This document shows positions 3,695-14,825 of a DNA stretch of 64,000 nucleotides, piece after piece; position 1 is the stretch's first letter; the number at the start of each line of letters is the position of its first letter. The notes beneath the pieces are model-generated. The model was not told the origin of the DNA and searched no databases. It saw nothing but the letters and a program-made list of their open reading frames with translations. The position numbers and the translations under genes are program-made. Source of the DNA: Thiovulum sp. ES (lineage in GTDB: Bacteria > Campylobacterota > Campylobacteria > Campylobacterales > Thiovulaceae). Location: contig AKKQ01000003.1 in NCBI GenBank assembly GCA_000276965.1, positions 462-64,461 on the forward strand, read 5' to 3'.

Positions 3695-5890
3695 ATGGCA
3701 ACAGCAAAAACAACAAGTGCAAAAGAGAAAGCTTTAGAATCTGCTCTAAAAGAGATCGATAAGAAATTTGGAAAACATACCTTAATTAGAATTGGTGATA
3801 AAGAGATTGAGAAAATTCCGTCAATTAGTACGGGTTCGATCGGACTTGATTTATCATTAGGAATTGGTGGTTTGCCAGTTGGTAGAGTTATTGAGATTTA
3901 TGGACCAGAAAGTTCAGGAAAAACTACACTTTCATTACAAACAATTGCCGAAGCACAAAAAAAAGGTATGCGATGTGGATTTATCGATGCCGAACATGCA
4001 ATTGATATTCAATATGCAAAAAATTTAGGTGTTGATGTAGAAAATTTATATTTATCCCAACCAGACTACGGAGAACAAGCTTTAGAAATTACTGAAACAA
4101 TGGCAAGAAGTGGTGCTTTTGACCTCATCGTTATCGATTCCGTTGCGGCACTTGTTCCAAAAGTTGAGATTGAAGGAACAATTGAAGATCAGCAAGTTGG
4201 TGTTCAAGCTAGATTAATGAGTAAAGCACTTCGACGACTCGCTTCAGTTTTACACGATATGAATGCGACTGTGATTTTTATAAATCAATTACGACAAAAA
4301 ATAGGTGTTATTGGTTACGGGTGTTTCCATCATGACACACTTTTAAATTTTGCAGATGGTCGTTCACTTCCAATTGGTGAAGTTGTTGATAATAAAATTA
4401 AAGGTGAAGTTTTTTGTATCAATGAAAAAACAGGCGAAATCGAAACAAAACCTATTACAGCTTGGCACGATAATGGCAAAGTTGAAAAACATGAAGATTT
4501 TATACATTTCCAAACTCAGTCAATTAATGGTAGAGATAGATTTGGTTTTACAGCAACTCGAAAACATGAAATTCTTACAGATAGTGGATGGAAAACGGCA
4601 GAAGAAATTAGCTTTGAAGATAAATTAACTTCTAAATATTTAGAAACAGCGAATGGAACTTATGGGGAATTTTTAAGAGGTGTTTTTGTTGGAGATAGCA
4701 GAATTTCGATTAGAGATAAAAATACCGCAAATTTAAGACTTCAAGATAATTCAAATGCAGACTATGTAAATTGGAAACTTGATAAGTTGCAAAAATTTCT
4801 AAATTTCAATGAGTTGAAAGTTGAAAAAGGTTATCGATATGATTCTGAATTCAGTTATGAATTTGCAAAAATTAAAAGAGAACTTGGCGAACAAGATCCA
4901 ATTTATATGCTGGAAAATTATTCTCCTTTAAGTTTGGCAGTTTGGTATATGGATGATGGAAGCTACTATTCTGAAGACTATCACAGCAGAAGTGCTATTT
5001 CAATTGGACGATACAGAAATCAGACTCAAAAATTAAATGAGATTTTAGAGATTTTTAAATCTAAAACAGGCATTGATGAGGTAAGTATTCAAGATTCAAA
5101 ACTTCAATTTACAAAAAATGGAACAGATAAATTGGCAGAAATCATTTCAAAATATGTTCCCGACTCAATGCAATATAAATTGCCTAAAGATTTTAGAGGA
5201 AAATATGTTGATTTTGAACTAGAAAACAGTCCAAAATTGGTAACAGATTTTGTTGAAATTAAAGAGATTAGAGAAGCTTCTGACAGACAAATGAGAAATA
5301 AACGAAAATTTGATATTTCCATTGCGGACAACAAAAACTATATGGTTGGTGGTTCTCAAAATGGTGTAATTGTTCATAACAGTAACGAAACTACGACAGG
5401 GGGGAATGCACTTAAATTTTATGCTTCTATAAGACTCGATGTGAGACGAATTGCCAGTTTAAAAAATGGCGATGATATTATCGGAAATCGGACGAAAGTT
5501 AAAATTGTAAAAAACAAAGTTGCACCTCCTTTTAAAATTACTGAATTTGACATTATTTTTGGAAAAGGTGTTAGTAAAGTTGGTGAAGTGGTTGATTATG
5601 CCGTTAAATTTGATTTCATCGAAAAAAGTGGAGCTTGGTTCAGTTACAACGACAGAAAAATTGGACAAGGTCGAGAAAATGCGAAAAAATTTCTACTAGA
5701 TAATCCTGAAGTGATGAAAGAAGTCGAAGAAAAAGTTATTGCAAAATTGAAACCTGCTCCTGAAGAGATGAGTGAAGCTGAGAAAAAAGAGGCAATAAAA
5801 GAGAATGTTGATGAAACTTCAGAAGAGAAACCAAAAAAGACAACTCGAAAAAGAGCAACTAAAACAGAAGAAAAAAGTTCGGAAGAATGA
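3695..5890 (+). CDS. recA: Recombinase RecA interrupted by an in-frame intein (the extein totals about 378 aa and has a Lys/Glu-rich C-terminal tail)
   Basis: 731 aa. Walker A is GPESSGKTT. It also has FIDAEHA and [15 protein letters not shown] | intein | [23 protein letters not shown]...[12 protein letters not shown]. Confidence 0.95.
4322..5380 (+). mobile_element. RecA intein (353 aa) with a LAGLIDADG-type homing-endonuclease core
   Basis: Starts with the Cys codon TGT at 4322-4324, directly after ..GVIGYG. Ends ..GVIVHN (AAC 5378-5380), followed by Ser (+1). Block-B-like TRKH is present. LAGLIDADG-like motifs are [11 protein letters not shown] and [11 protein letters not shown]. Block F/G is [25 protein letters not shown]. 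The frame was checked against the recA start. Confidence 0.9.
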
Positions 5891-6057
5891 GAAATACTAT
5901 AATTCTTCTGTTTTTAGCAATTCCGCTTTTTGCATGTGAAACAAAAGAAATTTTTATTTGCGATGTAAATGAGACTATCGAGTCTCTCCCTGAAAATTTT
6001 GATGGTGATGAGGTCGATTTAGGAATTGCGGAAGAATTATTCCAATTTGAGAATTAG
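5887..6057 (+). CDS. Small putative lipoprotein (56 aa), below the ORF-track cutoff
   Basis: The ATG at 5887 overlaps the recA stop (ATGA). Sequence: [56 protein letters not shown]. It has a signal peptide with an LFAC lipobox-like end. The stop TAG is at 6055-6057, just before the queH ATG at 6060. Confidence 0.4.
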
Positions 6058-10803: not shown

Positions 10804-12399
10804 TTAATAATCTCGATCTCTTCGGTCTCTTCTGTCCCGTCGATCTCTTCTGAATCCACCATCACGGTCATCACGACGATTTCCACCTCGATATCCGCCT
10901 CGATCACCACCGCCATCACGACTGCCATCACGACCGCCATCACGACGATTTCCGCCTCGGTAGCCACCTCGATCACCACCGCCATCACGATGATTGCCAC
11001 CTCGGTATCCGCCACCACCTTTTCGGTAGCCACCTCGACCGCCTCGATCTCTACCACCACCGTGCGAACTATATTTTTTAATTCGTTCGATGTCATCAAG
11101 AGTCTTTCCAATTATATCAGAACCTCGGATTTTATAATCTTCAGCGATAATTGAAGCGAATTTATAAAGTAGTGTTTTGTCATCATACTCATTCTCAAGC
11201 ATAGTAACAAGTGTTGTTCCATCATCAGAATTTTCAGTCTCTTCAACTCTACTTGCAAAACTCTCCATTTTTTTCTCTCGAACTTCTGAGATATTTGGAA
11301 TTACTTTTGTAATAAGTTTTGAACCTGTGCTTTTTTCGATTTTTTGAAGACTTCTATACTCTTGCGGAGTAATAATTGAAACTGCAAATCCGTCTCGACC
11401 AGCTCGACCAGTTCGTCCAATTCTATGAACATAACTTTCGCTATCAAAAGGAATGTGGTAGTTGAAAACATGAGTTACATCAGAAACATCAAGTCCTCGA
11501 GATGCAACATCAGTCGCAATTAAGATTTCACCATCTTTACTTTTAAAGTCTCGAATTACAGCTTCTCGAACTCTCTGTTCAATATCACCGTGAAGTGCTT
11601 TTGCTGAAAAACCTTGAGAATTTAAAATTCCTGCAACTCTATCAACTTCTCTTTTTGTTCGGCAGAAAATAATAGATTTTGTTGGGTTTTTGTAATCGAT
11701 AAGTCGAACAAGAGCTTCGTCTCTCTCTCTCTCTTCAACAACATAGTAAGATTGTGTAATATTATCGTTTGTTACTTTGTCTTTTGTGATTGAGATTATT
11801 TTTGGATCAACAAGGAATTGCTCAGAAAGGTTTCTGATTTCATGTGGCATTGTTGCTGAAAAAAGTAGAGTTTGTCTCTCAGATGGCATGTAAGAGAAAA
11901 TCTCTTTAATATCGTCAAGGAATCCCATGTCTAACATCTCATCAGCTTCGTCAAGAATGAGAGTTTTTGGAGAAATATTTATCGGGTCTGTAACCTTACC
12001 TTTGATGAGGTCAAGTAATCTTCCTGGAGTCCCAATAACAATTGATGCATTTTTAATATGATCCAATTGTCTTTTATACGAAGTTCCTCCGTAAATTGTA
12101 GCTGTTCGAATTCCTAAACTTCGACCGAATTTAAAAATTTCATCACTAACTTGAACAGCAAGTTCTCTTGTTGGAACAACAATTAGGGCTTCAACTTGCC
12201 CATTTAATTCTAAATTTGATAATACTGGCAATCCAAATGCTGCAGTTTTTCCTGTTCCTGTGTGTGCCTGTGCAACGACATCTTTTCCCTCTAAAACGGC
12301 AGGAATTGCTTCGATTTGAACCGGACTAGGCTCTACAAAACCAGCTATCTCTACTGCCTTGAAAACTTCTTGTTTTAAATTAAATTCTTTAAAATTCAT
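10804..12399 (-). CDS. DEAD-box ATP-dependent RNA helicase with an RGG/RD-rich C-terminal tail
   Basis: 531 aa. Q motif and Walker A (AHTGTGKTAAF), DEAD box (LDEADEML), SAT, HRIGRTGRAG. The last 90 aa or so are GGRDRGGRGGYRKGGGGYRGGN...RRDRRDRRDRRDRDY. Confidence 0.9.
   Translation of the reverse strand: MNFKEFNLKQEVFKAVEIAGFVEPSPVQIEAIPAVLEGKDVVAQAHTGTGKTAAFGLPVLSNLELNGQVEALIVVPTRELAVQVSDEIFKFGRSLGIRTATIYGGTSYKRQLDHIKNASIVIGTPGRLLDLIKGKVTDPINISPKTLILDEADEMLDMGFLDDIKEIFSYMPSERQTLLFSATMPHEIRNLSEQFLVDPKIISITKDKVTNDNITQSYYVVEERERDEALVRLIDYKNPTKSIIFCRTKREVDRVAGILNSQGFSAKALHGDIEQRVREAVIRDFKSKDGEILIATDVASRGLDVSDVTHVFNYHIPFDSESYVHRIGRTGRAGRDGFAVSIITPQEYRSLQKIEKSTGSKLITKVIPNISEVREKKMESFASRVEETENSDDGTTLVTMLENEYDDKTLLYKFASIIAEDYKIRGSDIIGKTLDDIERIKKYSSHGGGRDRGGRGGYRKGGGGYRGGNHRDGGGDRGGYRGGNRRDGGRDGSRDGGGDRGGYRGGNRRDDRDGGFRRDRRDRRDRRDRDY
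10871..11008. repeat. Imperfect 69-bp tandem duplication encoding the RGG tail
   Basis: TCACGACGATTTCC begins at 10871 and again at 10940 (period 69 nt). The first 50 nt or so of each unit are nearly identical. They encode RDGGGDRGGYRGGNRRD twice. Confidence 0.7.
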
Positions 12400-12686
12400 G
12401 TTAATCTTTGTTTGTGAAAATCACAATTTATAATGTGTGTGTGTAATGTTTTTTGCTGTGAAGAACCAAATCTTGTGGGTTTGTTTGGAAATATTAAACG
12501 GAAAGTTTAAATATAAAGGTTCAAGCAGTAGTTCCTACCGCATATGATATACACACTTGTCTTAAAAATCAGCTTTTGTCTTACTGAAAAATATACAGGG
12601 GGAATTGTAACATAGTTTTAAAAATCATCTTTTTTATAAAATACAATTATAATGTGTAGATTTTGTAAGTTTTTTGTCCTTCTATT

Positions 12687-14825
12687 GTGGTAGATTCTAC
12701 TAAAAATAAATTGGATTATAAAATGGATTATAAAATGGAAAAACTTTTTAAACCTCGTTCAGTTGCTGTTATTGGTGCTTCAACAAATACAGAAAAACTC
12801 GGCTATAAAATTATGTCAAATATTATCTCTTCTGGTTATCAGGGAAAACTATATCCTGTTACACCAAAAGGTGGTGAAGTTCTCGGGAGAAAAGCCTACA
12901 AATCTCTACTTGAAATTGAAGGTGAAGTTGATTTTATCGCAATTGTTGTTCGAGTTGATTTTGTTCATGATGTTATTCGTGAAGCTGTTCAAAAAGGAGT
13001 CAAATTTGCTGAAATTATCACTTCTGGATTTAGTGAAGTTGGAGAAAAAGAGCTTGAAAATGAAGTAGTTGCAACTGCAAAAGCTGGTGGATTGAGAATT
13101 ATTGGTCCAAATATGTTTGGTGTCTATTCAAAAGCTTCTCACATGAATGCTACTTTTAGTGCGAAAAAAGTGCTTGAGGGAAATGTGGCGGTTCTTACTC
13201 AAAGTGGAGCGATTGGTGTTGCGATGGTTGGAAAAACTGAAGTTGAAAATGTCGGTCTCTCTTCTATTATCTCTTTTGGAAACAAAGCGGACATAAATGA
13301 AGCGGACATTGTTGAATATTTGGAAACTGATGAAAATACAAAAGCAATTCTTCTTTATGTCGAAGGAATTAAAGATGGTGAGAGAGTGCTAAAAAATCTC
13401 AAAAGTGTTGCAATGGTGAAACCGACAATTATTTTGAAATCTGGAGTGTCAAAACGGGGAGCAATGGCAGTTGCATCTCACACAGGTTCTCTTGCAGGTT
13501 CTGATCGAGTTTTCAATGAAATCATGAAACAGAGTGGAGTTTTACGAGCAACAACAATGAGAGAAGCGATAAATTGGAGTCAATTCCTCTCAAATTCCCC
13601 AGAGCCAAAAGGTTTTAACACTCTTGTAATTACAAACGGTGGAGGACTTGGAGCATTGGCAACAGACTCTGCGGAAAAGTGGAGTGTCGACCTCATCGAA
13701 GGTTCTGAATATATGAGTGAGAGATATAAAGCAATTGCACCAGATTTTGGAAGTTTGCAAAACCCAATCGATATTACAGGTGGTGCGGACGGAAATATGT
13801 ATCGGAAAGCTTTACGATTAGCTCTCGAAGACCCACAAGTTGATTCCGTAATTGTTCTTGGAACTGAAGTTGCTGTTTTTCCTGCTGAAGATATTGAAGC
13901 AATGATTCGAGAAGAGTTGGAAATTGGATTGAAAAAACCTGTTGCCTTTTCATTTGTTGGCGGAAAAGAGATGGAAGAGCGAATAGTTGAAATGAGAAAA
14001 GATGGAGTTCCAATTTTTGCAGATGTTGATGATGCACTTTCTGCTTTTGGTGCAATGTATCGACGATACCGAAATTTGATCCGAAGCCGTGAAACTGTTT
14101 TGCGACCGCAATTAGACAAACTCGATAAAAGTTGTAAGATTGTTGAAAAAGCAATTTCTGAAGGTCGTGATTCTCTTTTAACAACAGAAGCAATGAAAAT
14201 TCTCAAACATTTAAAAATCTCAAATCCAGAAAATGGTGTTGCTAAAAACAGCAAAGAGGCGAAAGAACTTGCGAAAAATATCGGTTTTCCTGTTGTTATG
14301 AAAATTCTTTCAAAAGATATTCTTCACAAATCTGATGCGGGTGGTGTTCTTGTTGGTCTTAAAAATGCAGATGAGGTCGAAAAAGGCTTTGAGAAAATTA
14401 TTAAAAATGCAAAAAAATATAAGTCAAATGCAAATATCGAGGGAGTTGAAATTGTTGAAATGGTGAAATCTTCCACTGAAATTATTCTTGGTGCTAGACG
14501 AGATGAGCAGTTTGGAACAACTGTTATGGCAGGTGTCGGTGGAATTTATGTCGAAGTTTTTAATGATGTCTCTTTCCGTTCATATCCGCTGACTCGTGAA
14601 GAAGTTTCTCGAATGTTCAAATCTACAAAACTCCAAAAATTACTTGGCGGTGTTCGTGGTGAAGCTCCTCGTGATTCTGAAATTCTTATCGATACGATTT
14701 TAAAACTTGGTGAAATTGTTGAGAGTTGTCCAAAAATCAGCGATATTGAAATCAATCCACTTTTCCTTTACGAAAAAGGTCTGAAAGCAGTTGATGCACG
14801 AATTATTTTAAATACAAAAAAATAG
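12687..14825 (+). CDS. Acetyl-CoA synthetase (ADP-forming) / NDP-forming acyl-CoA synthetase, fused alpha-beta type
   Basis: 712 aa. It has a CoA-binding N-terminus (FKPRSVAVIGASTNTEKLGY), a succinyl-CoA-ligase-like middle (SHTGSLAGS) and an ATP-grasp C-terminus. The true start is probably the ATG at 12735 (MEKLFKP) rather than the GTG at 12687. Confidence 0.8.
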   Translation: MVDSTKNKLDYKMDYKMEKLFKPRSVAVIGASTNTEKLGYKIMSNIISSGYQGKLYPVTPKGGEVLGRKAYKSLLEIEGEVDFIAIVVRVDFVHDVIREAVQKGVKFAEIITSGFSEVGEKELENEVVATAKAGGLRIIGPNMFGVYSKASHMNATFSAKKVLEGNVAVLTQSGAIGVAMVGKTEVENVGLSSIISFGNKADINEADIVEYLETDENTKAILLYVEGIKDGERVLKNLKSVAMVKPTIILKSGVSKRGAMAVASHTGSLAGSDRVFNEIMKQSGVLRATTMREAINWSQFLSNSPEPKGFNTLVITNGGGLGALATDSAEKWSVDLIEGSEYMSERYKAIAPDFGSLQNPIDITGGADGNMYRKALRLALEDPQVDSVIVLGTEVAVFPAEDIEAMIREELEIGLKKPVAFSFVGGKEMEERIVEMRKDGVPIFADVDDALSAFGAMYRRYRNLIRSRETVLRPQLDKLDKSCKIVEKAISEGRDSLLTTEAMKILKHLKISNPENGVAKNSKEAKELAKNIGFPVVMKILSKDILHKSDAGGVLVGLKNADEVEKGFEKIIKNAKKYKSNANIEGVEIVEMVKSSTEIILGARRDEQFGTTVMAGVGGIYVEVFNDVSFRSYPLTREEVSRMFKSTKLQKLLGGVRGEAPRDSEILIDTILKLGEIVESCPKISDIEINPLFLYEKGLKAVDARIILNTKK

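Follow-up and report, generated by a model that had tools for sequence, protein, structure and literature searches.

The recA gene of Thiovulum sp. ES (Campylobacterota) was analysed within a 64,000-nt stretch of contig AKKQ01000003.1, referred to below as the window; all coordinates are counted from its first base. The gene is located at 3695-5890 on the plus strand (stop codon included) and encodes a RecA precursor of 731 aa, as assigned from the list of open reading frames (ORFs) and from Pfam and NCBIfam matches. The Pfam family RecA matches this ORF in two separate stretches (3.9e-120), accompanied by RecA_C, and the NCBIfam recA equivalog TIGR02012 scores 490.8 bits. The gene is interrupted by an insert of 1,059 nt that is in frame with both exteins. 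The N-extein (209 aa, 3695-4321, plus strand) carries the Walker A motif GPESSGKT at 3902-3925 on the same strand and ends with KIGVIGYG in the first half of loop L2. It is followed by a class-1 intein of 353 aa (4322-5380, plus strand), which runs from Cys1 to His352-Asn353, and by a C-extein of 169 aa (5381-5887, plus strand), which starts with Ser+1 and Asn+2 and supplies the second half of L2. The insert edges are a TGT codon for Cys at 4322-4324 and an AAC codon for Asn at 5378-5380, preceded by His; the adjoining Ser is encoded by AGT at 5381-5383. The precursor has a computed mass of 82.6 kDa, the spliced RecA one of 41.6 kDa and the intein one of 41.0 kDa. An original prediction from the sequence alone had proposed a recA intein here. 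Its ORF length, its 353-aa insert and the Cys (4322) and His-Asn (5380) ends were confirmed to the base by re-reading the DNA and its translation, and its sizes of about 41 kDa for RecA and about 40 kDa for the intein match the computed values. In annotation, the locus is best recorded as a single, intein-containing recA rather than as a gene fusion or pseudogene.

Conservation was assessed in two intein alignments, one of seven sequences including an actinobacterial member and one of 13 sequences of the close clade. Block A (4322-4360, plus strand) contains Cys1, the putative first nucleophile, together with Thr6 and Gly13, all three invariant, and aligns with the Npu and Ssp DnaE inteins. 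In block B (4544-4579, plus strand), Thr79 and His82 of the TxxH motif (TRKH, residues 79-82) are both invariant. Blocks F and G (5303-5380, plus strand) end with NGVIVHN and include Asp331, His352 and the presumed cyclising Asn353; Lys329, Asp331, Tyr340, Val342, Gly348, His352 and Asn353 are invariant in both alignments (A2, A3). Taken over the whole intein, the invariant residues comprise Cys1, Thr79, His82, Asp125, Asp211-Asp212-Gly213, Asp331, His352 and Asn353.

Profile and structure comparisons agree with this assignment. The NCBIfam model intein_Nterm (TIGR01445) reaches 25.8 bits against a cut-off of 24.5, and TIGR01443 reaches 13.1-14.4 bits, slightly under its cut-off of 15.6. The N-terminal 60 aa of the intein match the Npu and Ssp DnaE inteins at 2e-5, while the DnaB and Mycobacterium tuberculosis RecA mini-inteins match more weakly. 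An AlphaFold2 model of the intein, built on the seven-sequence alignment, has a mean predicted local distance difference test score (pLDDT) of 87.3 and a predicted template modelling score (pTM) of 0.79. A Foldseek search of this model against the PDB returned full-length inteins as top matches, namely PI-PfuI (1.9e-11), then intein homing endonuclease II, the PhoVMA intein and PI-SceI. The splicing part of the predicted structure superposes on the M. tuberculosis RecA mini-intein with a root-mean-square deviation of 1.2-1.6 Å over about 104 columns. An in-frame insertion, blocks A and B, a terminal His-Asn followed by Ser+1, the block F Asp and a Hint fold were all found, as is characteristic of class-1 inteins. 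The prediction of an intein is thus supported by sequence, profile, structural and comparative evidence, with blocks A, B, F and G all present. A group I or group II intron carrying a LAGLIDADG ORF is ruled out by the reading frame, which is continuous with the exteins, by the Hint-fold ends and by the lack of an Rfam intron; Rfam detects one tRNA only in the window. No frameshift or stop codon occurs across the 353 intein codons. From base composition, a stop-free run of this length in DNA of about 30% GC has, by our own arithmetic, a chance probability of about 1e-12.

Nested within the splicing domain is a LAGLIDADG endonuclease domain of the I-SceI type, spanning roughly intein residues 112-303 (4655-5230, plus strand). 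Its edges are approximate and were placed by the secondary structure of the model and by a natural deletion in a related mini-intein (P0009; retrieved proteins and loci are given under their P and L numbers). Pfam PF03161 (LAGLIDADG_2) matches residues 116-252 with 38.2 bits (cut-off 25, E = 1.8e-9). Motif 1 (residues 118-128, 4673-4705, plus strand) aligns with GLILGDAYI of I-SceI and contains Asp125 (4694-4696), which is presumably catalytic; this residue and Gly124 are invariant or almost so. Motif 2 (residues 205-215, 4934-4966, plus strand) aligns with LAYWFMDDGG of I-SceI and contains the presumed catalytic Asp212 at 4955-4957; here Met210, Asp211, Asp212 and Gly213 are invariant. The I-SceI alignment spans both motifs, including the I-SceI segment TPMSLAYWFMDDGG, and extends to the C-terminal M-x-YKLP. 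In the Foldseek comparison the endonuclease part of the model matches I-SceI and I-WcaI with template modelling (TM) scores of 0.56-0.59. The original LAGLIDADG call was therefore right, and can be refined to the I-SceI type and PF03161 with both motifs and both catalytic Asp positions. The domain is intact in relatives at 45-69% identity. The natural mini-intein P0009 (162 aa) does without roughly residues 113-303, which marks the endonuclease as a separable inserted module.

The closest relative of the gene is an intein-free recA, and it provides the matching empty site. P0014, found on 19 contigs and present in JGI metagenomes 3300079457, 3300079495, 3300079446 and 3300079456, is a 377-aa RecA that is 95% identical over its full length to the conceptually spliced RecA of the window, and the two genes share 92% DNA identity (P0014/L164). 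The best RecAs with a named source, from Arcobacteraceae, Campylobacter blaseri, Sulfuricurvum and Sulfurovum, are just 72-73% identical. The gene order flagellin - recA - 56-aa ORF - queH is common to the window and to contigs L164-L167. A blastn comparison of the window with L164 is collinear at 87.5-90% identity, and its sole break is window 4308-5386 against 20 nt in L164; the extein alignment runs up to 4307 and resumes at 5387. After removal of the 353 codons the L2 loops are of equal length. The recA gene of P0014/L164 is an empty site that lacks exactly the 1,059 nt, and the insertion is clean. The DNA reads ...GGTGTTATTGGTTACGGG^AGTAACGAAACTACGACA... across the fused window exteins and ...GGTGCGATGAGTTATGGA^CCATCTGAGACAACCACA... 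in the sister allele (^ marks the insertion point here and below). The 56-codon ORF downstream of recA (5887-6057, plus strand) overlaps the recA stop codon (ATGA) and has a lipoprotein-like start; its position is kept in the sister contigs (L164 7131-7301).

The insertion point lies between Gly and Ser of the L2 DNA-binding loop, G^S-x-ETTTGG. A pattern scan of species-representative genomes (GTDB representatives) yielded at least 516 related intein loci. Among the best 80 of these at least 516 loci, 77 belong to Actinomycetota, including Mycolicibacterium flavescens, Mycobacterium interjectum, Mycobacterium spp., Nocardia, Micromonospora, Intrasporangium, Streptomyces and Ilumatobacteraceae. 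The remaining three are a metagenome-assembled genome (MAG) labelled "uncultured proteobacterium" (L001, 44% identity), a Saccharibacteria MAG and an unclassified bacterium. Every parsed junction has the form FINQLREK(I/V)GV(M/L/F)(F/Y)G^C...VHN^SPE(T/V)T(T/P/S)GG, which is the same codon as in the window. FINQLREKIGVMFG^C...VHN^SPETTTGG is the junction in dozens of Actinomycetota besides M. flavescens (L078) and M. interjectum (L056), and the window intein is inserted at the same junction. In tblastn searches with residues 1-353, the actinomycetotal inteins align with the window intein at 26-31% identity (E = 1e-34 to 1e-42), and P0010 aligns throughout.

This position corresponds to the RecA-b site, which we take to be the site of M. 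leprae and M. flavescens; PI-MleI is presumably the endonuclease of the M. leprae RecA-b intein. The M. tuberculosis and M. leprae RecA inteins were reported to differ in size, sequence and location (PMC5874633). The window intein had been described as sitting at an M. leprae-type site. The junction and the full-length homology shared with M. flavescens and others bear this out; for M. leprae itself the assignment is presumptive, in keeping with the reported difference in location (PMC5874633). The claim that the M. tuberculosis site is intact holds: the RecA-a site, where the intein is inserted as VKNK^(C)SPPFK, is contiguous at 5501-5536. The intein-containing RecA model NF007072 scores 389 bits, far short of its cut-off of 1024, and on this profile the window junction falls at about 206 and the start of PI-MtuI at about 252-253, so that the insertion does not qualify as a RecA-a allele.

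Close relatives of the window intein are few. The close clade comprises only 12-13 proteins among 5.8 billion, all of them RecA; the top matches reach 68-69% identity and include one labelled Campylobacterales bacterium. A scan of 241 million metagenome records added a handful of loci only. One of them is L168, a cellular contig of 45 kb from Campylobacterales on which rsmE-, moeA- and mqnA-like genes lie near a recA with an intein at the same site, 67-68% identical to that of the window. In P0007 and P0008, from a 5.9-kb NCBI contig of a Campylobacterales MAG, recA is present as two ORFs with the break inside the endonuclease domain. About 40 residues are missing between ...YLNWK and MLEKAYS..., P0001 being an intact and near-identical version; the break reflects either nuclease decay or an assembly error.

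The other group of relatives is viral. In the IMG/VR collection, at least 338 contigs encode relatives of the intein, and eight of them, at 55-60% identity, are located in recA at the same site. Phage surroundings were confirmed at four viral loci: P0005/L082 lies near a major capsid gene, P0009/L081 among DnaB, primase, RuvC and PD-(D/E)XK genes, and L084 and L085 among genes for DNA polymerase, clamp, DnaB helicase, primase and ribonucleotide reductase. The earlier statement that RecA inteins are unusual outside Actinobacteria broadly holds for cellular genomes (77 of the best 80 loci) and overlooks phages, in whose recA genes the family is common. A census from 2015 counted 56 RecA inteins, in Actinobacteria, Cyanobacteria and Proteobacteria (PMC4760082).

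Several further arrangements were seen in the viral loci. The inteins of L092-L131 (e.g. L092 6001-7056, L095 6001-7083, L112 151-1236) are 32-39% identical over their full length and lie 3-4 residues downstream of the RecA-b site, with junctions GNPEY^C..HN^TPGG, GDPT^C..HN^CTPGG and GKDNT^C..HN^TTTGG. From these shifted junctions it follows that one intein family occupies several adjacent points of the L2 loop. The phage recA of L082 (6560-9617) is interrupted twice, as a 205-aa RecA N-terminal ORF, a free-standing NUMOD4/HNH ORF and the rest of recA with the intein; the arrangement represents either a split gene or an intron that contains the HNH ORF. In L081, a second intein gene (11371-13624; Intein_splicing and LAGLIDADG_3) is found about 8 kb downstream of the P0009 recA.

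The histories of intein and exteins are incongruent. Compared with phages L085-L090, the window intein is 56-58% identical, the N-extein 42-49% and the C-extein 29-47%. The comparison with M. flavescens gives 30% for the intein, 63% for the N-extein and 61% for the C-extein, and that with L168 gives 68%, 74% and 61%, respectively. RecA normally evolves far more slowly than inteins. Since the intein is more conserved than its host RecA in the comparison with phages, lateral movement is indicated. Close-clade inteins have a GC content of 23-37%, even where the surrounding locus has 45-53% (L001, L082), and this low GC content points to an AT-rich source pool. Judged from these sequence comparisons, the intein most likely entered the window lineage horizontally with phages as probable carriers, both direction and vehicle being conjectural. 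Phages were proposed earlier as disseminators of inteins (PMC5050341).

With regard to residence time, the GC content, overall and at third codon positions (GC3), is 30.5% and 17% in the intein and 34-36% and 18-21% in the exteins, with 32.5% GC for the whole window. A high AT content is common to the whole intein clade irrespective of host, so these values do not date the insertion. A further indicator is an abundant 8-mer, GATGAGGT/ACCTCATC, which occurs 55 times in the 64 kb where about one copy is expected by chance (29 on the plus and 26 on the minus strand, evenly spaced at about 1.2 kb; examples at 624, 4122 (-), 5075, 6007 and the pair 58323 (+) / 58334 (-)). The extended form C-GATGAGGT-C accounts for about 38 of the 55 copies. 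One copy, at 5075, is located within the intein, bare and without the usual C...C flanks. With one copy in its 1,059 nt, the intein has the 8-mer at the genome-wide density; by our own estimate about 0.02 copies would be expected by chance, and among 13 related inteins none contains it. The copy at 5075 had been taken as a sign of long residence. The copy itself is real, but as a single occurrence without the extended flanks it lends this idea weak support, and hints at either some time spent in the window lineage or acquisition from a conspecific. The 8-mer is also enriched in the sister-lineage contigs L164, L225, L226 and L227 and absent from L168 and the phage loci. Its lack of strand bias disfavours a Chi-like signal or one resembling KOPS (FtsK orienting polar sequences). 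The pattern looks like that of a DNA uptake sequence, which to our knowledge has not been described for Campylobacterota.

Taken together, we assign a probability of roughly 85% to the reading that the insert is a full-length, bifunctional class-1 intein at the RecA-b site in the L2 loop of a chromosomal Campylobacterota recA, predicted to be active in both splicing and DNA cleavage. The 82.6-kDa precursor, its L2 DNA-binding loop split by 41 kDa, should be an inactive recombinase. Along the canonical class-1 pathway, Thr79 and His82 would assist Cys1 in forming a thioester with Gly-1, and attack of Ser+1 on this thioester would yield a branched ester. Cyclisation of Asn353, with the help of His352 and Asp331, would then release the intein, and an O-to-N shift would leave a 41.6-kDa RecA with a restored L2 loop. 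The freed 41-kDa protein would act as a monomeric I-SceI-like nuclease (Asp125, Asp212) that cuts the L2-coding DNA of an intein-less recA, and double-strand-break repair would copy the intein into the cut allele.

The predicted inactivity of the precursor, with the insert at a critical L2-loop position, also fits an intein co-opted as a conditional switch, in which splicing and hence RecA activity respond to redox state, metals or DNA damage. Regulation of this kind was proposed for the RadA, DnaB and M. tuberculosis RecA inteins (PMC4760082, PMC11377839, PMC5874633), and a second cysteine (Cys32) is present in the window intein and in P0001-P0004. Conservation of Cys32 does not, however, extend to phage or actinobacterial members, and the close relatives are intein-free, so no benefit is needed to explain the presence of the intein. 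A switch is accordingly regarded as quite improbable.

The residues flanking the intein were compared in a codon alignment of L2 from the window, P0014, the outgroups P0015, P0016 and P0017, and L168. The loop reads GVIGYG^SNETTTGG in the window, GAMSYGPSETTTGG in the 95% identical sister P0014, G(T/V)MGYGPNETTTGG in P0015 and P0017 (GYGPNETT at the junction) and GYGSPE(T/I)TTGG in P0016 and L168. In the three closest intein-free relatives examined (P0014, P0015, P0017; L164, L225, L226), position +1 is Pro (CCA), a three-base difference from the AGT codon of the window. The splicing nucleophile at +1 must be Ser, Thr or Cys; Pro cannot serve. The L2 loop is nearly invariant in RecA generally, and in the clade of the window it is unusually variable (PS, PN, SN, SP).

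Several observations weigh against a fully active, mobile intein. In block F, Asn-Tyr takes the place of the His-Asn-Phe of many inteins, a change that is probably tolerated, judging from its conservation within the family. Position +2 is Asn in the window; in the other intein-bearing relatives examined it is Pro, with Ser in L086. The M. leprae RecA intein was reported to splice in mycobacteria and not in E. coli (PMC5874633), so that splicing in this intein family may, by analogy, depend on context. The window and sister recA genes differ at 92 of 1,137 positions, and 15 of these differences fall within 29 nt at the junction. With the nearest empty allele differing at 15 of 29 nt and carrying Pro at +1, the target may have been lost, and the endonuclease may be without a cleavable site in the local population. 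A donor search with 30 nt on each side of the junction against 14 intein-bearing loci found none close (15-21 and 10-15 mismatches). The genome and viral distribution counts, moreover, are lower bounds.

The unusual Asn+2 among intein-bearing alleles is also what could be cited for an insert that does not splice at all, which would make recA a pseudogene or a permanently enlarged protein. Asn+2 is, by the alignment, a lineage trait that is odd only among intein-bearing alleles, as P0015 and P0017 have it too. The catalytic residues are all conserved, the Hint fold is predicted with confidence and the exteins, which share 95% identity with the RecA of the sister lineage, are strongly constrained. 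RecA could not function with 41 kDa inserted in its L2 loop, and neither the ORF list nor the Pfam scan of the window shows another recA. Loss of splicing is hardly credible on this evidence.

The 29-nt patch bears on mobility. Polarisation with the outgroups P0015, P0016 and P0017 places changes in both the window and the sister allele, and the window flanks look native except for Ser+1 and one Ile. Possible explanations for the divergence are a very short patch co-converted with the intein, an empty allele diverging from the nuclease target, or relaxed evolution of L2. A long foreign co-conversion tract is unsupported, given the mostly native window flanks and the lack of a matching donor flank.

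The divergence of the nearest intein-less site (15 of 29 nt, Pro at +1) would also fit an intein that still splices and whose endonuclease is dead or without a target, the element being fixed, vertically inherited and immobile at a late stage of the homing cycle. No near-identical copy was found in the collections searched (best 69%), base composition and the lineage-specific 8-mer fit the host, and decay is seen in relatives, P0009 lacking the endonuclease and P0007/P0008 being broken inside it. The window intein, in contrast, has kept the two LAGLIDADG helices, the C-terminal SMQYKLP and both catalytic Asp residues, none of which varies within the clade, and its 353 codons contain neither frameshift nor stop. 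This is most simply read as purifying selection on the endonuclease part. An immobile intein is therefore considered unlikely, although it deserves serious attention, and a bifunctional intein is preferred.

The phage relatives and the variable host junctions allow a more speculative extension. The clade could be primarily a phage element that shuttles, in the course of infection, between phage recA and chromosomal Campylobacterota recA, with intein-free host alleles that combine Pro+1 with a scrambled L2-coding patch (GYG-PN/PS-ETTT) selected as "immune". Such alleles would not be cut and, if invaded, would not be productively spliced, and the L2 region of recA would be the site of a minor arms race that sets the host against a selfish element carried by phages. 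This scenario is considered doubtful.

Knowledge of RecA inteins, of the RecA-b insertion site and of this architecture dates back to the 1990s. The novelty is modest, and lies in the chromosomal host from Campylobacterota, the AT-rich sub-clade shared with phage recA and the matched empty allele; the literature searched contained no paper that pairs inteins with Campylobacterota by phylum name. The classic mycobacterial RecA-b allele is extended to a chromosomal recA of Campylobacterota. The occupied and empty alleles in sister lineages, together with the phage relatives, are useful material on intein movement between phage and host recombinases. For engineering, the locus offers a mesophilic intein of the Cys1/Ser+1 type that is AT-rich and has a separable nuclease of the I-SceI type; P0009 marks the trimming point.

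Four known systems are suited for comparison. The RecA-b inteins of mycobacteria and other Actinomycetota are alike in insertion point, in the class-1 Hint and PF03161 architecture and in full-length homology. They are 359-368 aa long, have Pro at +2 and reside in high-GC hosts, whereas the window intein has 353 aa and Asn+2, is located on a Campylobacterota chromosome of 32% GC and belongs to a separate AT-rich sub-clade found mostly in phages. The phage recA inteins (L084-L091, P0005/L082) share the site, 55-60% identity and the motifs CFHYDTLVNF, WHDNG and FIHIQT with the window intein. They lie in divergent RecA proteins (exteins 29-66% identical) within replication modules, in contrast to the window copy in a housekeeping chromosomal recA between flagellin and queH.

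PI-MtuI, the RecA-a intein, presumably of 440 aa, agrees with the window intein in host protein, class 1 assignment and a splicing domain that superposes in the model. It is inserted about 46 residues downstream of the site used in the window, and its endonuclease domain is unrelated. The endonuclease domain of the window intein resembles I-SceI and the free-standing PF03161 proteins P0011-P0013 in both LAGLIDADG motifs, which are repeated almost verbatim (LAYWFMDDGG in I-SceI), in the C-terminal MxYKLP and in the fold. I-SceI and P0011-P0013 are stand-alone or intron-encoded, whereas the domain in the window is nested in a Hint domain and expressed within RecA.

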